From an uncultured Saccharofermentans sp. (GTDB lineage: Bacteria; Bacillota; Clostridia; Saccharofermentanales; UBA5734): a stretch of 64,000 nt of DNA. Shown here piece by piece: positions 47,015 to 60,358 of this stretch; position 1 is the first letter of the stretch; every line of letters begins with the position of its first letter. A program made the translations under genes and the position numbers. The stretch spans positions 1,431,605-1,495,604 of the forward strand of contig OY776634.1 in assembly GCA_963675845.1 (NCBI GenBank). The letters are read 5' to 3'. The notes beneath the pieces are model-generated. The model was not told the origin of the DNA and did no database searches. It saw only the letters and a list, made by a program, of their open reading frames with translations.

Positions 47015-47195
47015 GAACTCTCCTTTCAATACCGAATAAAATATGCGACTCCTATTATAACTGTAATCAACTTGTAAAGCAAGCTGAGCAGGGTTGCCTT
47101 TCAGGACAACCGGGGGGGACGATAACTGTGTTAGAATATGGCTAATACGAGGCAATCAATATCTCATTTCCCTAAGTGTTAAGGAGTGGCTTTAT

Positions 47196-48623
47196 ATGAC
47201 AGAATCGGGCAGTGACAACAACAAAATCGTCAAGACAGGACAAATTCATGAATTGCAAATTGACAGCGTCAACCAGGACGGCCAGGGCATCGGCAGACTG
47301 GATGGCCTGGCGGTTTTCATCCCGCAAACAATCCCCGGGGATGTCGCCCTGATCCGGCTGGATACCATTAAGCCGAATTACGCGGTTGGCAGCCTGGTTG
47401 AATTGCTCAGGGCATCGGTCGACCGGATCAATCCGGTTTGTCCGATCGCGGATAAATGTGGCGGCTGCAGCCTGCAGGTGATGGCCTATCCGACACAGCT
47501 GATGTACAAGCAGCGTGAGATCACTGAGGTTCTAAGACGTATCGGCAAGGTCGAGGAACCGCAGAAAAAGATGCGACCGATCCTAGGCATGGTCAATCCG
47601 TGGCACTATCGAAGCAAGGCACAATTCCCGGTGTCCGGCACATCGGAAGACCCGCAGATCGGGTTTTATGCCAGCCGTTCACATGATGTGGTGCCATCGA
47701 CGGTTTGCCCGATCCAGCATCAGGCCAGCGACCGAATTAGACAGGTCCTGATCGACCATATCAAAGCTGAGAAGATTGAACCTTATCAGGAAAATACACA
47801 CAGCGGGCTGATTCGCCATCTGGTCGTCCGAGTTGGATTTGCGACAGGCGATGTCATGGTGATTCTGGTGGTCAACGGTGATCACTTCCCCGGCTCTGAA
47901 CATTTCCGGCAAAAAGCCGAGGAAGCTCTGGCAGCACTCAATCATCCGGACAAGAAGCGCTACCGATTGAAGAGCCTTTACCTCAATATTAACAAAGCCC
48001 AAACCAACCAGATCCTGTCTGAAGACTGCAAGCTGGTTTCAGGCCAGTCCTATATTGAGGAAATCATTCTCGGATCTCACTACAGGATTTCGCCGCTGTC
48101 ATTTTTCCAGGTCAATCCCAGACAGACGGAAATCCTTTATTCACAAGTGCTGAACATGGCCGGCCTGGATATCGACAAGACTGCCATCGACCTTTATTGC
48201 GGCACGGGTGCCATTTCCATCATCCTGGCTAGCCGGGCAAAGAAAGTGATCGGCATCGAGTCAGTTGCCCAAGCTGTGGAAGATGCACGCATCAATGCTG
48301 AGATCAACCGGCTGAAAAACACCGAGTTCATCGTCGGAAAAGCCGAAACAGTTCTGCCTAAACTGGTTAAAGAGGGCTTGACCGCCGATGTCGCTGTGAT
48401 TGATCCGCCAAGGAAGGGTTGTGACCCAGCCCTGCTGGAAGCAGTCGTCGAAGCCAAAATCCCCAGGATCGTCTATGTCTCCTGTTATCCGGCGACCTTG
48501 GCACGGGATATCGACTTGCTGCAAAAGCAAAACTACGAGGTCCAATCCATTCAGCCCGTTGATATGTTCCCTTGGACAGGGCATGTGGAGACCGTTGTAT
48601 TGATGTCAAGGGTAAACAAGTAA
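47196..48623 (+). CDS. rlmD: 23S rRNA (uracil-5-)-methyltransferase RlmD/RumA
   Basis: Start at MTESGSD after AAGGAG. TRAM domain, a [4Fe-4S] Cys cluster (CPIADKCGGCSLQ), a SAM-MTase fold (DLYCGTG), and the C-terminus ...GHVETVVLMSRVNK. Confidence 0.85.
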   Translation: MTESGSDNNKIVKTGQIHELQIDSVNQDGQGIGRLDGLAVFIPQTIPGDVALIRLDTIKPNYAVGSLVELLRASVDRINPVCPIADKCGGCSLQVMAYPTQLMYKQREITEVLRRIGKVEEPQKKMRPILGMVNPWHYRSKAQFPVSGTSEDPQIGFYASRSHDVVPSTVCPIQHQASDRIRQVLIDHIKAEKIEPYQENTHSGLIRHLVVRVGFATGDVMVILVVNGDHFPGSEHFRQKAEEALAALNHPDKKRYRLKSLYLNINKAQTNQILSEDCKLVSGQSYIEEIILGSHYRISPLSFFQVNPRQTEILYSQVLNMAGLDIDKTAIDLYCGTGAISIILASRAKKVIGIESVAQAVEDARINAEINRLKNTEFIVGKAETVLPKLVKEGLTADVAVIDPPRKGCDPALLEAVVEAKIPRIVYVSCYPATLARDIDLLQKQNYEVQSIQPVDMFPWTGHVETVVLMSRVNK

Positions 48624-48746: not shown

Positions 48747-48824
48747 AGCGATTTAAATAACATGGGTCTGCGTGTGGTCGATTTAGATAACACGGGCTTG
48801 TGGTGGTCAATTTAGATGTTATGG
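48747..48824 (+). repeat. iteron-like direct repeats (GTGGTC.ATTTAGAT family), three ~29-bp units
   Basis: GCGATTTAAATAACATGGGTCTGC / GTGTGGTCGATTTAGATAACACGGGCTTG / TGGTGGTCAATTTAGATGTTATGG, read directly. They are related to repeats at 54260, 54886, 60589 and 62711. Confidence 0.6.
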
Positions 48825-48940
48825 ATTTTACGAGGGTATATGTTCAGGATAGATGAAGTCTATTAAATTGATATCAGAGAAAATGTAGGTTCTGATATGA
48901 GAGTTAGGGTCAATTGGATAATACGTGGGAGGAGACAGTT

Positions 48941-49828
48941 TTGACAGTATTAAACAATCAGTTTGGAAAAAATATTAAATACTTAAGAACTGCCTACGGG
49001 GAAACTCAATTAGACCTTGCGCTGGCTGTTGGGCTGGACTCGCCAAATGCAATTGCTAATTATGAAAAAGGAGAACGGATACCCAAACCGGAAATAAAGA
49101 AAAAGATAGCGTTACATTACCGTATAACGGAAGATGAGCTTGTCCACTCAGATTTTTCCGGAATGCAGGTTTCTTCATCTCAATTAGGAAATAAACAAAA
49201 AATGATTGAGATGACACTACTTATGTGCCCCATCACCTGCACTGATAAAGCGATGAAGGATTCTTTGTTTCAAAAAGGCTATGCAGCCCATATGCGCGCT
49301 CTTGATGCAATGAAGGACGGATTTACATTTGCCGATGCTGATTATGATATGTGTATAGGTGCTTACTCAGATTCTTACGATGAATATGAAACGCCAGAGT
49401 CGTTAGCTAATATTCTTTGGTGGTTTGTAATAACCGAGCTGAGTATGAAAAACCAGTGGATGATTGATGGTGCGGAAGCGTTGAGTGATAAAAGAGTCAG
49501 CAAGAAGGATTTCTTTAAGAACTTCTATCTAAAGGATTGCTCATTTCCAGATGAGGGAAAACTGCTTGGAGAAACTGAACTAAAAGATTTAAAGGAAATG
49601 GGCGAGACGGTCGTTGAATTGTTAAAAGAGCTTAAGAAGAATGCTCAATATTCAAATCTTGCAGATTATTATATAGCTCTTAGATATATTTTGGGGTGTG
49701 TTGATAATGAACTTACAGAAGCAATGAATAAAGCTGTTGGTTCCGAAATGATTTGGGCCTTTGCACAGCTTGGAAATAAATATGCAAAGAAGTTTATTTT
49801 GCTCGGAATTGAAAATTTGCGAAAATAA
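48941..49828 (+). CDS. XRE-family HTH regulator with large helical C-terminal domain (RNPP/Rgg-like architecture?)
   Basis: HTH_XRE (IKYLRTAYGETQLDLALAVGLDSPNAIANYEKGERIP) plus a ~220-aa helical C-terminus. The start was chosen at a TTG 7 nt after GGGAGGAG; the ORF-track start at 48914 is also a TTG. Confidence 0.55.
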   Translation: MTVLNNQFGKNIKYLRTAYGETQLDLALAVGLDSPNAIANYEKGERIPKPEIKKKIALHYRITEDELVHSDFSGMQVSSSQLGNKQKMIEMTLLMCPITCTDKAMKDSLFQKGYAAHMRALDAMKDGFTFADADYDMCIGAYSDSYDEYETPESLANILWWFVITELSMKNQWMIDGAEALSDKRVSKKDFFKNFYLKDCSFPDEGKLLGETELKDLKEMGETVVELLKELKKNAQYSNLADYYIALRYILGCVDNELTEAMNKAVGSEMIWAFAQLGNKYAKKFILLGIENLRK

Positions 49829-49922
49829 ACACTAACCTCACAAAGTGTGAGCGATAAAATCCTCTGAACTAATATAATGAATACATAAGTTATTCAAGTA
49901 TATCGTAAGGAGGATTTTTTAT

Positions 49923-50366
49923 ATGGAAGAGCAGAAGAAAGGTTTTTTAGTCTGGGTTAAGAAACATAGGAAGGAACTTATTATTGCAGGTATCAGTGCA
50001 ACCGCATTGATTGGGATTATTATATGTATGAAGAATCGTGATTCAATTGAAGCCCTTTGGAAATCACTGATTGGGGCAATAGAAAAATCTCCTACCGAGA
50101 CTACGAAAATATCTCAAACGACAATCGAGAAGATTGCACAATCATCCGTCACTGTTACAGATGCCATCAACCCAACCAAAATACCGGTTATCAATTCGGA
50201 AATAACTTATCAAAATTCCTTTGAAGTTAGTGATCATATCAGAAACCTGCATGAAGGATGGCGTGCTTCTGCAACAAAGATCACTGAAGCAGAGTCCATG
50301 GGAATTATACTTCAGGAGGGACAAACATTGGTCGACGCTTATACAAAGGGATCTGTTGCAGCATGA
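49923..50366 (+). CDS. hypothetical single-pass membrane protein (147 aa)
   Basis: Strong RBS (TAAGGAGG). TM helix LIIAGISATALIGIIICM near the N-terminus. Confidence 0.45.
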   Translation: MEEQKKGFLVWVKKHRKELIIAGISATALIGIIICMKNRDSIEALWKSLIGAIEKSPTETTKISQTTIEKIAQSSVTVTDAINPTKIPVINSEITYQNSFEVSDHIRNLHEGWRASATKITEAESMGIILQEGQTLVDAYTKGSVAA

Positions 50367-50424
50367 GTTTGAAAGTCCAGAAGCAATCGTATCTTTTAAG
50401 ACTTAATAAAAGGAGTGTGTAAAA

Positions 50425-50589
50425 AATGCAAATGTGTGGAGAATGCATGAAAGTTTATGATGAATCTGAATATACAAAATGCCCTTTTTGTTACAAAGAG
50501 AAAGATGAATATACGCATGTTATTGTCTATGACAAGGAAGCAGGTATAGCAAAATCAGTACTAAAGGAAGAAGCGCATCTCTATGAGTG
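50425..50589 (+). CDS. small zinc-ribbon protein (54 aa; CxxC-11-CxxC), not in supplied ORF track
   Basis: AAAAGGAGTG RBS, then ATG. MQMCGECMKVYDESEYTKCPFCYKEKDEY... Coordinates are approximate to +/-1 nt. Confidence 0.45.
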
Positions 50590-50689
50590 AACAGCATTTG
50601 ATAATAGCTGGCGCACATTAATGAGATTTGCATATTCCCAAATAGAGCAACCTGTAAAACTAATGGTTAAATGAGGAGGTATAGAAGTA

Positions 50690-50872
50690 ATGGGGGATAG
50701 ATTTCCTGATATTGATTGGTGGTGTGATCGTTGCAACGCATATTTAAATGGCCAGATAGGATTTGATGATCATAAGTATATTTGGGAGTGCACTGAATGT
50801 GGTCATAAAAATAGCATCTCAGCTGCAAATATTTACGAATCCGAAGAAGACTTCAGGAATGGAAACAATTAA
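50690..50872 (+). CDS. small zinc-ribbon protein (60 aa; CxxC-18-CxxC)
   Basis: GAGGAGG RBS. MGDRFPDIDWWCDRCNAYLNGQIGFDDHKYIWECTECGHKN... Confidence 0.5.
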   Translation: MGDRFPDIDWWCDRCNAYLNGQIGFDDHKYIWECTECGHKNSISAANIYESEEDFRNGNN

Positions 50873-50896: not shown

Positions 50897-50950
50897 GAGA
50901 AAAAAGCTCCTCGTCGCTAGCAAGAATTAGCAAAGGGAGCTTTTTTTATT
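50897..50950. terminator. bidirectional terminator hairpin (AAAAAGCTCC ... GGAGCTTTTTTT) between convergent genes
   Basis: 10-bp stem flanked by an A-run and a T-run. The loop contains a GCTAGC palindrome. Confidence 0.5.
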
Positions 50951-52469
50951 CTTCAACATCCACCGTCACGCCGGACTTAAATTCCACGGTGAATTTGTCC
51001 TCATAAACGGTGATCTTTTCAATAAGCCTACGGACAAGCGCTTCGTCGTAGTTAGCAATGGCAGTGGGTTGCTCCTGAAGAAAAGCGCTCATGTCGGTGA
51101 TGCGTTTTTGCAGTTCATCCCGGCCGAGGTTCTCGACCTGAGCCTTTTGCTTCTCATCACGTAGGCGATAGATTTCATCGCCGACCTTCTCGTAGTCAGC
51201 CTTTGAGCTGGCGAGCTTCAAGAGCTCTGCTTGAAGTTCTGTAAGCCGTTTATCGATTGCGGTAAGGGTATGACTGTTTTCGTGACAAATAACGGTTTCG
51301 ATGTTTTCTGCAGCGTGATGAGAAAATGATCTTTATCACACAATGCTTGGTTGATGGCCGTGACCATCACTTGCTCTAAAGTGCTCTAGTACCGTTCGGG
51401 CTTCGCAGAAAAGACCAGTGTTTTCTAGGCGGCTGACACACCGCCAAACAACTGATTTCTTGCCTCGGTTGTTCCAGTGAACCCTGCGGAACACCTCGCC
51501 GCAGCCACCACATACAATCATGTTAGAGAAACAGTGGATGCAGCTGAAGGTCCTGTTCTTTCCGTTCGGGCTGGTGTGGACGATGCGGCGTTGGATGAGT
51601 TCCTCCTGCACCTGCATGAATATTTCACGCGGGATGATGGCCTCATGGCTGTTTTCCACATAATACTGTGGGACGACGCCGTGGTTCTTTACTCGAGTCT
51701 TTGTGAGGAAGTCAGTGGTGTATGTTTTCTGTAAAAGGGCATCCCCAATATACTTTTCATTTCGTAGGATATGATTGATATTGCTGGTATGCCATTTTTC
51801 ATTTCCGGCACCATTTAGAATGCCATCGGCTTCAAGGCCGCGCTTGATTTTCAGCATACTGGCACCTTTGAGGTACTCCCGGTAGATGCGCTTTATTATT
51901 TCTGCTTCTTCGGGGACAACGATCAGGCGCTTATTCTCATCCTTTGTAAACCCGAGGTAACGGTTGCAGTTGACCTGGATTTCGCCCTGCTGGTAGCGGT
52001 ACTGAAGCCCCAGCTTCACGTTCTGGCTGAGGGACTGGCTTTCCTGTTGTGCAAGAGAAGCCATAATGGTGAGCATGAACTCGCCCTTGGAATCCATGGT
52101 GTTGATGTTCTCCTTCTCAAAAATGACTGGAATATTCTTATCCTTCAGCTGGCGGATGTATTTCAGGCAATCCAGCGTATTCCGGGCAAATCGGCTGATC
52201 GATTTTGTAATGACCATGTCAATAGTGCCGGCAATACACTCGTCAATCATGCGATTGAACTCTTCGCGGTGCTTGGTGTTCGTCCCGGATATGCCATCGT
52301 CCGCAAAAATTCCCGCTAGCTCCCAGCTTAAATTGCTCTTGATGTAGGAAGTGTAATGCTCGATCTGCGCTTCATAGCTGGTGGCCTGTTCGTCGCTGTC
52401 CGTCGAAATGCGGCAGTAGGTAGCCACCCGTAGCTTGGGCTGTTCCTCGTCTGGATTTTTGTTTGCCAT
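50946..52469 (-). pseudogene. large serine recombinase (resolvase domain + recombinase domain + zinc ribbon + coiled coil), interrupted by two compensating indels
   Basis: ORF 51336..52469 carries the catalytic [22 protein letters not shown] and zinc-ribbon Cys residues. ORF 50946..51221 continues the C-terminal coiled coil. Between them the true frame ([26 protein letters not shown]) is displaced by an apparent 2-nt loss in GAGAG and a 1-nt loss in an A5 run. Confidence 0.75.
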
Positions 52470-52792
52470 AACCTGTCCGTTTTAATTTACCAGTTATATT
52501 TTATCACGAGTAACCCAACGGCCGTTTTTAGGGTAGAAAGTTGGTTAAGATTTAGCACCCCTACCCCTAAAAGCATAAAAAAATCTCAGTTTTAGCACAA
52601 ATCTTTGAAATTCTTGGAATTTTTTGCTGACCTTCACCTTTTAGCCTGACTAGGCGAATAGTCGATTTCTCGGTGATTGAACATCCCCCGAAAACTCCTC
52701 ATTTATCTATATCGTTGAAAGATTTCATCTATCTCCATCATTACGTTTCTATCTCCATCAAAATATGGTAAAATGATGGAGAAAGATAGTTG

Positions 52793-53860
52793 ATGATGGA
52801 GATTAGTATGCATACTTTTGATTATAAATCTAAACCACTTCAATGCCTGACACCTGATATTGTTGCGCTGATCACAAAGATTCATGAGTGTAAGGGACGG
52901 CAGGAACTGTTCATTGAAGCTAATCAGGATGAATTGAAATCATTGCTGGATATTGCCAGGATACAAAGCACAGGTTCATCTAACCGCATTGAAGGCATTT
53001 ATACATCCGATAAACGTTTGGAAGAGTTAGTCAGCGAAAAATCTGAACCTCGAAACAGATTTGAACAGGAAATAGCAGGATATCGTGAGGTATTGTCATC
53101 CATTCATAATCAATATGAGTACATTGTTCCAAGACCAAATATCATTTTGCAATTACACAGAGACTTATACGCTTACTCAAGTTCTCCGATAGGTGGTTCC
53201 TATAAAAACTCTGATAATTTCATTTCCGAAATAGATGGTGATAGGAAACAGAAGACCAGATTCACCCCCGTATCTGCATTTCAAACACCTGACGCCATGA
53301 ACCAGATGTGTGAAGCATTTTTATCATCATATGAACAGCAGACAATAGATTCACTTATTCTTATACCGATGTTCATTCTGGATTTCCTATGTATTCACCC
53401 GTTCAATGATGGTAATGGCAGGATCAGCCGTTTGCTGACTCTGCTGCTGCTCTATCAAACGGGGTATATTGTTGGGAAGTACATGAGTCTCGAAATGCTG
53501 ATTGAAAAAACCAAAGAAACATATTATGAAGCACTCCAGGATAGCTCAACTGGATGGCATCAAGATGAGAACCGATATGAACCTTTTGTCAAATATTATT
53601 TGGGGATTCTGGTGAAGGCTTATAATGAATTCGAAAACCGTATTGAGCACCTTAAATATCGTAAAATGTCAAAGCCAGAGCGAATCAAGGCTGTTATCGA
53701 ACGGAAAGTTGGCAAGATTACAAAAAAGGAAATTATGGAATATTGCCCTGACATCAGCCAAGTGACTGTTGAAAGAACGCTGACAAATCTGGTTAATAGC
53801 GGCTATATTCAAAAAATTGGGGCAGGGCCTGCAACGGCATATGTAAAAATTGAGCAATAG
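52793..53860 (+). CDS. Fic-family protein (class II, N-terminal inhibitory SxxxEG motif; C-terminal wHTH)
   Basis: Fic active-site motif HPFNDGNGRISR and an inhibitory-helix-like SSNRIEG. It is divergent from the serine recombinase gene. The start is ambiguous (52790 TTG, 52793 ATG or 52808 ATG). Confidence 0.8.
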   Translation: MMEISMHTFDYKSKPLQCLTPDIVALITKIHECKGRQELFIEANQDELKSLLDIARIQSTGSSNRIEGIYTSDKRLEELVSEKSEPRNRFEQEIAGYREVLSSIHNQYEYIVPRPNIILQLHRDLYAYSSSPIGGSYKNSDNFISEIDGDRKQKTRFTPVSAFQTPDAMNQMCEAFLSSYEQQTIDSLILIPMFILDFLCIHPFNDGNGRISRLLTLLLLYQTGYIVGKYMSLEMLIEKTKETYYEALQDSSTGWHQDENRYEPFVKYYLGILVKAYNEFENRIEHLKYRKMSKPERIKAVIERKVGKITKKEIMEYCPDISQVTVERTLTNLVNSGYIQKIGAGPATAYVKIEQ

Positions 53861-53902: not shown

Positions 53903-54067
53903 AATATTGAATGATGGAGAAGCTGATTTATATCGAGCTTAGGCTCTGGCTTCCTGGTTATGAGAAGATATCCATCCTGACCACTTACTCCTATGCGCAA
54001 ATGTTCCCTTGGCCCAATGAGGTTTTTTGGTGATGTTGACTTGAATGAAGAAGCAAAAATTATGTGA

Positions 54068-54157
54068 AAATCACATCAAAACATCGAGCTGGGGCTCTCG
54101 AACCATGCTGAGACGGTGGTATTGATGTTAAGAGTCGAGGTTGGAAAGACGATATAA
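54068..54157 (+). pseudogene. displaced rlmD 3'-end fragment 1 (translates ...IELGLSNHAETVVLMLRVEVGKTI*)
   Basis: The in-frame translation is homologous to the intact RlmD C-terminus (GHVETVVLMSRVNK). It shares the core GAGACGGTGGTATTGATGT with the intact gene (GAGACCGTTGTATTGATGT). Confidence 0.7.
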
Positions 54158-57994: not shown

Positions 57995-59065
57995 ATGAAT
58001 GAGCAAAAACTACCTATGTTGCCACCAAATGCTGAATTGGAAACTAAAGCTGTGCTCAAGCAGCTGGCAAGATCCAATCGAGCATTGGCTGAACTGAAAG
58101 GTTATGCAGATACTATTCCGAATAAACATATTTTGATCAATGCGGTCATAATCAATGAGGCTAAGGATAGTTCTGCAATTGAAAATATCATAACAACCCA
58201 TGACGATCTTTATAAAGCTATGAGTGATGCAAGTGGTGCAAGTCATGCCGCAAAAGAAGTTGTGAGCTACAGGGCTGCTTTATGGCAAGGATATGAGTTG
58301 GTTATGGCACGTGAAATGCTGACAACAAATATGCTTGTTGAGATACAAGGAATTATTGAGAAAAACCGAGCAGGAATACGAAAACTGCCTGGTACCGTCC
58401 TTCGGAATGAAAGAACAGGTGAAACTGTATATACGCCGCCTGCAGGTGAATCTGAAATCAGAGAACTCTTAAATAATCTAGAAAAATACATCAATGAAGA
58501 CAATAATGATCTGGATCCATTAATAAAGCTGGCAGTCATCCATTACCAGTTTGAAAGCATCCATCCTTTCTATGACGGCAATGGAAGGACCGGCAGAATC
58601 ATAAATGTGCTTTACTTGGTATTGAAGGAATTGCTCCATAGTCCGATTCTTTATTTGAGCAGCTATATTATCAAGAACAAGTCAGCCTATTACAGATTGC
58701 TTCAGGAAGTTCGAACCCAAGAAAATTGGGAAGAATGGGTACTCTATATTCTCACAGGTATTGAAGAAACAGCAGAAGAGACACTGAGATTAGTCAAGAG
58801 AATCAATTTTGAAGTTGAAACAATGAGTGCTGAGATAAAGGAGAAACTTCCTAAAATTTATTCGAAAGAACTAATTGATTTGCTGTTTCATGAGTTTTAT
58901 ACAAAAACGATATATATTGAAAACGGCTTATCAGTAACAAGAAAGACTGCCGCAAATTACCTGTCTTCTCTTGAAAAAGAGGGCTTTCTTACTTCAGAAA
59001 AGATAGGAAGGGAGCGGATTTATCAAAACAAAAGATTGTACGACTTGGTTAAGTACGGGCAATGA
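57995..59065 (+). CDS. Fic-family protein (class II, inhibitory SAIEN motif; C-terminal wHTH)
   Basis: HPFYDGNGRTGR Fic motif and an SSAIEN inhibitory-helix-like motif. It is divergent from the recombinase remnant, as in element I. Confidence 0.8.
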   Translation: MNEQKLPMLPPNAELETKAVLKQLARSNRALAELKGYADTIPNKHILINAVIINEAKDSSAIENIITTHDDLYKAMSDASGASHAAKEVVSYRAALWQGYELVMAREMLTTNMLVEIQGIIEKNRAGIRKLPGTVLRNERTGETVYTPPAGESEIRELLNNLEKYINEDNNDLDPLIKLAVIHYQFESIHPFYDGNGRTGRIINVLYLVLKELLHSPILYLSSYIIKNKSAYYRLLQEVRTQENWEEWVLYILTGIEETAEETLRLVKRINFEVETMSAEIKEKLPKIYSKELIDLLFHEFYTKTIYIENGLSVTRKTAANYLSSLEKEGFLTSEKIGRERIYQNKRLYDLVKYGQ

Positions 59066-59355
59066 AGCTGAAATAGTATATCAGGCAACCTGGCATACAG
59101 TTATCTTTCTCAAAAATCACCGGGATGTTCTTATCCTTCAGCTGCCGGATGTATTATAGGCAATCCAGCGTATTTCGGGCAAACCGACTGATCGACTTGG
59201 TGATGACCATGCCAATATTGCATCCATGTACTCGTTATTTTTGCGATTGATTCGCCACTTTAGGGTAATATAAATAATCGTATTGATATTTGGCTTTGCC
59301 GCTTGCTTATGCCATAACATCAAGCAAGAAAGTCAAGTTAAAGCGTGGTGATCAC

Positions 59356-59694
59356 ATGAAACATTCACGGGAAATCTTAAATCTCGCAAAACAGAATAAT
59401 GGTGTAATCACCACCGCGATGGTTGTTGCAGCCGGTTTTCCGCGAGGAAGCCTTAAATATCTGGTGGATACCGGAGTTCTAGAAAAAGCTTCACGCAGTG
59501 TCTATATTCTGCCAGAGGTTTTGGAAGATGAATTCGTCAACCTGCAGAGCAGATTTAAACGCGGTATCTTTTCTCTGGGGACAGCGTTGTTTCTCTGTGA
59601 CTTGACGGACAGAACTCCAGGGAAGTATCACATGACATTCCCCAGCACTTATAATCTTTCGGGCCCGAAGGAAGCAGGTATCTTGTGCATATGA
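59356..59694 (+). CDS. AbiEi-like antitoxin (type IV TA), short form
   Basis: MKHSREILNLAKQNNGVITTAMVVAAGFPRGSLKYLVDTGVLEKASRSVYIL is an AbiEi N-terminal wHTH-like domain. It overlaps the downstream nucleotidyltransferase gene by 10 nt. Confidence 0.55.
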   Translation: MKHSREILNLAKQNNGVITTAMVVAAGFPRGSLKYLVDTGVLEKASRSVYILPEVLEDEFVNLQSRFKRGIFSLGTALFLCDLTDRTPGKYHMTFPSTYNLSGPKEAGILCI

Positions 59695-60358
59695 TCGGAC
59701 TCGATTCCAGAGCAACGATGGATATGGATGCAACGATTAAACGATATCCGGTAAGCGGGGAGACTGTTCGGACGATGGTTGAGGAAATTCTCAGGATCGA
59801 TCTTGATGACGTTATTTCTTTCACATTCAAGAAAATCGGAGAGATCAGAGAAGGGGATGAATACCCAGGATATCGTGTTTCACTAGTTGCTAATTATCCG
59901 CCTATGGCAGTTCCGCTGAAATTAGATATCACTGCGGGTGATAAAATCACACCACGCGAGATTGTATATGATTATAGACTGATGCTGGAGAATCGCAGTA
60001 TAAATGTGCTTGCCTATAATCTGGCAACAATACTGGCCGAAAAACTTGAAACCGTTATTTCTCGCGGCGATTAAAACACCAGAACGAGAGACTACTACGA
60101 TATCTTTATCCTGATAAAACTGCAGGCGGAGAATATTGATCTTAAAAACTTAGCCTTGGCTTTGCGTAAAACAGCCAGGAAAAGGGGCTCGGAGACGATA
60201 GTTAGGCAGTACCGGAGAGCATGGAAGCCGTGAGAAATAGTGAAGCTATGAACCGGCAGTGGTCCAATTACCGCAAGGATTTTGACTATGCAACCAACAT
60301 AGAATTTTTGGAAGTCTGTGATGTTGTAGCCAGCGTGATGTATAACCTGCTGGAATGA
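59685..60358 (+). pseudogene. AbiEii/AbiGii-family nucleotidyltransferase toxin, disrupted (in-frame TAA plus 3' frameshift)
   Basis: The N-terminal segment ends ...LETVISRGD-TAA-NTRTRDYYDIFILIKLQ..., continuing in the same frame. The C-terminal segment ...EAMNRQWSNYRKDFDYATNIEFLEVCDVVASVMYNLLE is in a different frame. Near the 5' end, EILRIDLDDVISFTFKKIGEIREGD resembles the family's conserved N-terminal region. Confidence 0.6.

Follow-up and report, generated by a model that had tools for sequence, protein, structure and literature searches.

Positions 48941 to 50872 of a 64,000-nt stretch of DNA from an uncultured Saccharofermentans species (contig OY776634.1), the whole of which is called the window here, hold four genes in a row that a preliminary description had singled out as an operon-like set on a mobile element. 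The genes are referred to below as REG, TM147, ZR54 and ZR60, and compared loci and compared proteins are denoted by L and P, respectively, followed by a number. The four genes are:

48941-49828, forward strand: REG, 295 aa, TTG start; Shine-Dalgarno sequence GGGAGGAG at 48927-48934
49923-50366, forward strand: TM147, 147 aa, single transmembrane helix; Shine-Dalgarno sequence AAGGAGGA at 49907-49914
50426-50590, forward strand: ZR54, 54 aa, acidic C4 zinc ribbon (CGEC-11-CPFC); AAGGAG at 50410-50415
50690-50872, forward strand: ZR60, 60 aa, acidic C4 zinc ribbon (CDRC-18-CTEC); GAGGAGG at 50673-50679

All four are real co-directional genes, each with a Shine-Dalgarno sequence. Public gene callers predicted the same four proteins on a 3.18-Mb NCBI contig, including the product of the 54-aa CxxC-11-CxxC gene that had been proposed from the letters alone. 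A protein identical to REG is recorded as P0403, and close relatives have ATG at the position of the TTG start in the window. Comparison of the window with diverged relatives revealed purifying selection on all four genes: omega (dN/dS) was 0.13 for REG, 0.29 for TM147 and 0.17 for the zinc-binding part of ZR54 taken by itself, and ZR60 and L037 differed by 0.117 at nonsynonymous sites (pN) and by 0.776 at synonymous sites (pS), the latter value being saturated. The omega values come from diverged loci, as dN/dS among near-identical loci is uninformative. The preliminary description had held that its four-gene set would fall if the small open reading frames were not conserved; ZR54 and ZR60 each have a conserved family under purifying selection, and the four-gene observation is therefore confirmed.

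Residues 12-67 of REG match the Pfam model HTH_3 (E 5e-7, above the curated cut-off). The AlphaFold2 model (pLDDT, the predicted local distance difference test, 89) consists of an XRE helix-turn-helix (HTH) followed by ten helices, so that the protein is laid out as an XRE-type HTH (residues about 7-70) and an all-helical domain of ~220 aa that resembles tetratricopeptide repeats (TPR). This agrees with the earlier description of a 295-aa HTH_XRE protein with a long helical C-terminal domain. Judged by its sequence, REG is a member of the XRE-family (Cro/CI-type) HTH regulators, and its C-terminal domain is predicted by the model to be a generic TPR-like helical domain. The full-length relatives of about 295 aa number 68, at 30-99% identity, and are found in Clostridia and Bacilli, including Fredinandcohnia, Clostridium, Roseburia, Butyrivibrio, Pseudoramibacter, Merdimonas and Oscillibacter. 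Within the helical domain N157, Y243 and N279 are invariant and N263 is nearly so.

Two features upstream of REG are candidate sites for a DNA-binding protein:

48750-48825, forward strand: direct repeats of 30-nt period in two and a half copies, GATTTAAATAACATGGG.. / GATTTAGATAACACGGG.. / AATTTAGATGTTATGGA; candidates for protein binding
48871-48898, forward strand: palindrome ATATCAGA-N12-TCTGATAT, 43 nt upstream of the REG start; candidate operator

The TTTAGAT repeats at 48750-48825 are kept in L011-L013, and repeats of the TTAGATG type also precede REG in L018 and L049. The palindrome is partly retained in L014 (77% DNA identity) and L016 (73%), over the aligned stretch. A promoter scan returned fewer sites than in shuffled sequence, and no promoter is claimed. 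No conserved short open reading frame was found upstream of REG in the window, and none in the 94-nt gap between REG and TM147. Elsewhere, in L021, L022, L024, L064, L066 and L161, a conserved open reading frame of 61-63 aa lies just upstream of the regulator, be it REG or a MerR-type protein. These frames belong to one clade with the consensus M..T.K...EY..(L/M)C......G..LT.DGLR.IC.....DPEAIG.H.LETLA, have no Pfam match and are absent from the window.

The second gene was described beforehand as encoding a 147-aa single-pass membrane protein, and TM147 indeed has one hydrophobic segment only, ELIIAGISATALIGIIICM, with a 19-residue Kyte-Doolittle mean of 2.27. A conserved basic N-terminal tail and the transmembrane helix are followed by a variable linker rich in Pro, Thr and Ser and by a conserved 45-aa C-terminal head with the consensus HIRNL..G..AS..K...A...G..L..GQT.V..Y.K...AA; in the alignment H105, R107, N108, L109, S116, K119, A123, G133, Q134, T135 and the terminal Ala of the head are invariant. 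The net charge is about +3 in the N-terminal tail and about +1 past the helix, a bias that favours a topology with the N-terminus inside and the C-terminus outside. The family comprises 1033 clusters at 50% identity in the representative library, the best 150 of which are all stand-alone proteins of 120-240 aa, and no Pfam family covers its members. TM147 was absent from 72,556 plasmids, and phage records gave one partial match only, to the N-terminal part; in a Coprococcus phage the N-terminal anchor is joined to a different C-terminus. Two candidate assignments were rejected: the head as a LysM-like domain had no Pfam support, and a PDB match to the CIDE-N domain (E 0.31) was not significant.

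The preliminary description had assigned REG to the peptide-sensing RNPP/Rgg/PlcR regulators. Known members (PlcR, Rgg, PrgX, ComR and AimR) resemble REG in that an N-terminal XRE HTH is followed by an all-helical repeat domain of ~220 residues, ~290 aa in all, and in that their genes lie on mobile elements beside small genes. The locus might then encode RNPP- or arbitrium-like signalling, in which REG would be a cytoplasmic peptide receptor, TM147 an exported precursor whose C-terminus (..Y.KG..AA) would be released and re-imported, and the zinc ribbons AimX-like outputs. The size of REG and its combination of HTH and helical repeats, as in PlcR, Rgg and PrgX, argue for such a system, and the three genes beside an integrase recall the order aimR-aimP-aimX. 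The invariant Asn and Tyr residues of the helical domain also resemble the residues that clamp the peptide in TPR receptors. However, in searches with 52 REG family members the HTH alone was matched: the C-terminal domain met no Pfam or NCBIfam model and had no RNPP, Rgg or TPR match, so that the RNPP label fails by sequence, and the fold gives it no clear support. A short secreted pro-peptide gene is not found next to REG; its neighbour is an anchored protein of 147 aa with a conserved head, and TM147 proteins of 120-165 aa carry a 19-residue anchor helix and no signal-peptidase motif. Moreover, the TM147 head is better conserved than the putative receptor (48% versus 35% identity in L022), the opposite of the divergence expected of pherotypes, and the partners are not faithful, since TM147 also pairs with a MerR regulator and REG with unrelated membrane proteins. 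We regard signalling of this kind as very unlikely.

ZR54 and ZR60 are acidic, with isoelectric points of 4.9 and 4.4. ZR60 scored 32.9 bits against the Pfam model zf-Sec23_Sec24 (PF04810), where the cut-off is 25, and one of its relatives is labelled 'Sec23/Sec24 zinc finger-containing protein' by NCBI. The C4 ribbon and its spacing are all that is shared; because ZR60 is a 60-aa bacterial or phage protein with no COPII context, the Sec23/Sec24 name carries no functional meaning. The exact ZR60 protein occurs in 38 blocks of the collection, adjoined by TM147, ZR54 and a recombinase in the places read. The two ribbons are fused to each other in P0177 and in a 73-aa protein of L025 and L161. 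Homologues of ZR54 and ZR60 also occur without REG or TM147 and distant from any large serine recombinase (LSR), for example next to a fragment of ArdA and an N6-methylase, or in further regions of degenerate elements.

Two further observations concern the small genes in this position. In a very common metagenomic contig family (L037-L044, 751 collection blocks), the gene directly after guaA encodes another single-pass membrane protein, of 100 aa, and is itself followed by a ZR60-like gene; the locus is probably what is left of a further element, integrated at a second classic site. At the C-terminus of small acidic third-gene proteins of L014, L016, L034, L036 and L052 we noted the motif ..LSVY(D/E)AA(E/D)IW.S.GKDEDYMFGY..EELE.AL. 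The proteins that bear it are encoded next after the membrane protein, and some of them have a zinc ribbon and others do not; the L052 copy is degenerate and partial. The motif falls in no assigned family.

The GC content drops from ~55% to ~38% directly after a gene for a rumA-like 23S rRNA methyltransferase (47094-48623), and the four genes lie between this boundary and a recombinase gene. The features that delimit them are:

48582-48623, forward strand: left junction, the last 14 rumA codons (HVETVVLMSRVNK*), an element-supplied mimic of the rumA 3' end
50899-50947: hairpin flanked by an A-run and a T-run, -22.8 kcal/mol, z-score -2.8; bidirectional intrinsic terminator
50946-52469, reverse strand: LSR pseudogene, disrupted by a frameshift near 51.3-51.4 kb and convergent with the operon

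The homology with L011-L013 begins exactly at 48582, inside the last 14 rumA codons, and the gene that flanks it there belongs to the YjgF family and not to rumA; L049 has the same junction behind its own rumA. Since the homology starts within rumA codons beside a different chromosomal gene, the element brings its own mimic of the rumA 3' end. Such a mimic is typical of elements that integrate into the 3' ends of genes. The 3' end of rumA is a documented hotspot for elements with serine recombinases (PMC11578063). The LSR of the window matches the Pfam models Resolvase, Recombinase and Zn_ribbon_recom and shares 87% identity over 505 aa with the LSR of L004, which is intact and 522 aa long; in the window it is split into separate open reading frames. 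The hairpin between ZR60 and the LSR was also considered as an attachment (att) site. This was rejected: in seven other loci non-homologous GC hairpins with T-runs stand at the same spot, after the LSR stop codon, and homology is continuous across the junction, which argues for a shared terminator. An exact second copy of the att core was not found in the window. The genes thus occupy the slot between the junction at 48582 and a convergent LSR, in line with the cargo position beside a recombinase that was noted at the outset.

The LSR gene has 77.5% nucleotide identity (megablast) to the integrase of the Ca. Heliusvirales phage PV036457.1, whose record ends on the right, where the integrase lies, with tail genes, an endolysin and three recombinase genes. 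Megablast of the region gave no match in plasmids and, in phages, the integrase alone; the Heliusvirales paper contains nothing on integrases or repressors. The order REG, TM147 and a small gene, facing two LSR genes, was found in IMG/VR in L061/62, L063/64, L066 and L067/68, with variants in L065 and L070, that is, on at least six independent contigs, variants counted. The layout is met again in many genomes and metagenomes, on prophages and mobilisable elements of both Clostridia and Bacilli. Beyond the LSR genes, L061 encodes a small HTH protein, an Amidase_2 endolysin and Phage_holin_4_1, and similar genes are present in L066 and L067. L061 is a mosaic, with 31% identity to the REG of the window, 70% to TM147 and 90% to the LSR. 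What the preliminary description called element I is indeed an insert with a serine recombinase, but it appears to be the remnant tip of a temperate phage and not a self-contained element.

The slot between att and LSR is occupied by variants of the REG operon, by a variant with a MerR regulator, by a Tox-GHH protein with SUKH, or by DUF7000 with a beta-lactamase-fold protein. The slot of L070 (3034-4434) contains a gene for SUKH-1 immunity and then one for a 323-aa protein composed of an N-terminal Tox-GHH nuclease, a weakly hydrophobic middle and a C-terminal head of the TM147 type. The module adjoins AbiEi in L011 and relaxase genes in L020 and L025. In L020 (152-6403) a BREX set (BrxA, BrxB and BrxC) and a TIR/SEFIR protein are encoded divergently upstream of the REG-TM147-zinc-ribbon module and a relaxase downstream, which suggests a mobilisable element carrying BREX and the module together. 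The window operon stands next to integrase and att where the prophage ends, is separate from the structural and lysis modules and has a terminator of its own, and the content of its slot varies, all of which are properties of a moron.

That the operon always adjoins LSR genes and an att site, and relaxase genes as well in L020 and L025, could also mean that it controls the life cycle. In that case REG would act as master repressor or sensor for a phage or integrative element, one or both zinc ribbons would be antirepressors or directionality factors that switch the LSRs to excision, and TM147 would relay a signal from the envelope. The known LSR directionality factors are small and mutually unrelated (PMC12286644, PMC11795197), and in this respect, as small and diverse proteins on LSR elements, they are like the zinc ribbons. 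Unlike them, ZR54 and ZR60 occur where no LSR is near, as after guaA or beside the ArdA fragment and methylase, and the small gene does not vary with the type of LSR: L014 and L016 share a 94-aa third-gene protein, but the L014 recombinases have no tblastn match to the LSR of the window and those of L016 are 38-46% identical to it. A master repressor should also not be absent from all 50,697 GenBank phage genomes, Heliusvirales included, as REG is, nor be replaceable by a MerR protein, and the module persists beside a dead recombinase. A life-cycle switch is therefore unlikely in our view.

Comparison across loci showed which parts of the set travel together. Wherever sequence downstream of a REG relative is available, one of the next two genes encodes a small protein that has a single hydrophobic segment; this protein is mostly TM147 and in about a dozen loci a member of another, unrelated membrane family. 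Conversely, in a common variant from the human gut a 279-aa MerR-family regulator stands in the place of REG before TM147; homology between the C-terminal domains of the two regulators was considered and rejected (hhalign probability 0.2%). A metagenomic survey of TM147 yielded 75 full-length loci, not de-replicated. REG lies directly upstream of TM147 in 33 of the 57 loci with enough upstream sequence (31 flagged by script, plus L160 and L190), and a convergent LSR lies within 2.5 kb in 21 of the 40 with enough downstream sequence. Among the 64 loci with at least 400 nt downstream, the gene after TM147 is ZR54-like in 23, encodes a 108-aa basic protein in 18 and is ZR54 together with ZR60 in 3; 6 have other combinations and 14 nothing recognisable. 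What stays constant is the combination of a dedicated regulator with a small bitopic membrane protein and with further small proteins, most of them acidic and most of them zinc ribbons, and all of these parts are exchangeable. The quartet is accordingly not the fixed unit that it had been taken for: the recurrent pairing is that of regulator and small membrane protein, and the zinc ribbons are swappable and found elsewhere.

In widespread contigs without a detected REG, where an insertion sequence lies upstream of TM147 and the LSR is broken, TM147, ZR54 and ZR60 are intact. This bears on whether the operon is an addiction or abortive-infection pair, in which TM147 or its head would be a membrane-acting toxin held in check by REG, the zinc ribbons or both, so as to stabilise the element or kill infected cells. 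The fusion of a TM147 head to a Tox-GHH nuclease toxin beside a SUKH immunity gene in L070 is in favour of this, and so are the Fic and AbiE genes of toxin-antitoxin type in neighbouring cassettes, the frequent role of XRE regulators as antitoxins (weak NCBIfam matches) and the keeping of the module in decayed remnants. The persistence of the other three genes without REG would be unexpected if REG were the antidote; furthermore, a single helix with a small ordered head is not the design of a pore former, and no toxin family was matched. The likeness to polymorphic toxin/immunity systems of the Tox-GHH and SUKH-1 kind lies in the TM147 head that ends the Tox-GHH protein in the same slot of L070, but that protein, with its toxin domain at the N-terminus, is atypical, and in the window TM147 has no toxin domain and there is no gene of an immunity family. 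A toxin pair therefore seems quite improbable.

Searches of Pfam, NCBIfam, PHROGs, PADLOC and PDB recognised the HTH and generic zinc ribbons and nothing else of the quartet, PHROGs giving nothing beyond the HTH. The preliminary description had been unable to assign the quartet to a known system, and this holds across the five libraries. In the libraries and the paper searches we found no description of the association of REG, TM147 and zinc ribbons; the C-terminal domain of REG, TM147 and ZR54 are uncharacterised. The kind of locus is already known: regulated accessory genes in an operon where a prophage ends, as part of a tandem array at rumA.

Our preferred explanation, to which we give a probability of roughly 0.42, is that the four genes form a self-regulated accessory ('moron') operon of a prophage that acts at the cell envelope, most plausibly in superinfection exclusion or defence. 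We favour it because the regulator can be swapped for an unrelated one, because the slot holds conflict genes in related phages, because the payload survives the loss of regulator and recombinase, and because the predicted topology displays the conserved head outside the cell. On this view a Heliusvirales-type temperate phage would have inserted itself at the rumA 3' end, and later decay would have left only its tip, the operon being the variable cargo between the attachment site and tandem LSR genes at the extreme end of the phage. REG may bind the repeats or the palindrome just upstream of its own gene and so set the level of the whole transcript, which would end at the terminator shared with the LSR, and its helical domain may receive a ligand or protein cue. 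The payload would be TM147, with the basic tail in the cytoplasm and the conserved head outside the membrane on a Pro/Thr/Ser-rich stalk; it would act at the envelope, most likely by blocking the entry of competing phages or elements. The acidic zinc ribbons could be exchangeable cytoplasmic partners or modulators. The probability left over by this explanation and the three alternatives falls to functions outside all four.

Several observations weigh against an envelope-acting prophage operon. REG had 0 matches among the GenBank phage records and is rare in IMG/VR (about 10 full-length matches), and its membership in phages therefore rests on contigs with predicted provirus borders. PADLOC-DB 2.0 gave weak matches to the HTH region alone (capH, RmrA) and none that is credible for TM147, ZR54 or ZR60, and the association with defence genes may reflect only a common residence on mobile elements. 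The C-terminal Ala-Ala of TM147, which is invariant, could mark the protein for degradation in the cytoplasm, which would contradict an outside-facing head, and the nuclease-toxin fusion of L070 is no less compatible with a cytoplasmic head than with an external one. Finally, ZR54 is frameshifted in L011-L013 and is therefore dispensable there.

Among known systems, an exclusion operon has a close parallel in the superinfection-exclusion genes that some prophages express along with the repressor, near the integrase, such as lactococcal Sie2009 and Ltp of Streptococcus thermophilus TP-J34. These also encode a small membrane-anchored protein, the bulk of it predicted outside, between an integrase and an XRE-type regulator in a variable slot at the prophage end. 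However, there is no sequence similarity, the window operon is convergent and not co-directional with the integrase, and the zinc ribbons are an addition. The window also resembles the defence and moron hotspots at integrase and att, and the accretion of elements at rumA, in its series of cargo genes each facing an LSR remnant and in its Fic and AbiE neighbours, but the cargo of the quartet belongs to no catalogued defence system.

The sequence beyond the LSR pseudogene continues this series with the following features:

52790-53860, 57995-59065 and 59290-60074: neighbouring cargo, two different Fic-domain proteins and an apparently truncated AbiEi/AbiEii pair
53990-54135, forward strand: degenerate second rumA-3' pseudo-end, ..MFPW..(78-nt insert)..HAETVVLM.., aligned to the rumA ends of the window and L049
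56842-57914 and 59100-59219, reverse strand: further LSR remnants, fragments in mixed frames

The next cassettes hold a Fic gene, then DUF7000 with a beta-lactamase-fold protein, then Fic/SoFic followed by AbiEi/AbiEii, with an LSR remnant after each; one of the Fic proteins has a C-terminal winged-helix region and one is SoFic-like. Given these serial cargo genes facing LSR remnants and the second pseudo-end, the low-GC tract is a tandem graveyard of prophage ends. The pseudo-end at 53990-54135 is, from its alignment, probably an old att junction, which would be the far end of this same prophage or belong to the following one; the same inserted segment is present in L011 (11660-11830). A 30-nt imperfect inverted repeat, ATCTCCATCATT..AATGATGGAGAT, at 52727-52803 overlaps the start of the Fic gene at 52790-53860 and is operator-like. 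Rfam found no RNA element between 48 and 53 kb, its single match, mir-5365 at 52727-52803, being spurious (28.9 bits against a threshold of 70). In L051 (930-2837) a 635-aa LSR frame crosses the att crossover into the rumA-3' mimic that precedes REG, and the same REG is found in L049 (8731), there directly behind rumA. This arrangement is either a second element accreted in tandem at the mimic or an assembled excised form.

TM147 represents a family of more than 1000 clusters (50% identity) that has no Pfam entry, and the helical domain of REG and ZR54 are likewise unannotated. These families are carried by temperate phages, among them relatives of the very prevalent Heliusvirales, and by mobilisable elements, in Clostridia from the gut and from digesters. 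A wider claim, which we put forward as doubtful, is that they form a widespread new class of phage- or element-borne envelope systems of Firmicutes, in which a sensor-regulator (XRE-TPR-like or MerR-long) is combined with a bitopic protein bearing a 45-aa head and with acidic zinc ribbons; such systems might serve a new kind of exclusion or defence, or signalling from membrane to transcription, in abundant gut temperate phages. Because the slot between att and integrase also holds Fic, AbiE and toxin/immunity genes, it is a place in which to seek new conflict systems. If the module is merely a moron of minor effect, the value of the finding is for annotation, in that three protein families are named and rumA-3' mimics and tandem graveyards of prophage ends can be recognised. 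If the module does exclude or sense incoming phages, it would represent a new mechanism at the level of the envelope and would help to explain why the tips of dead prophages are retained behind rumA.

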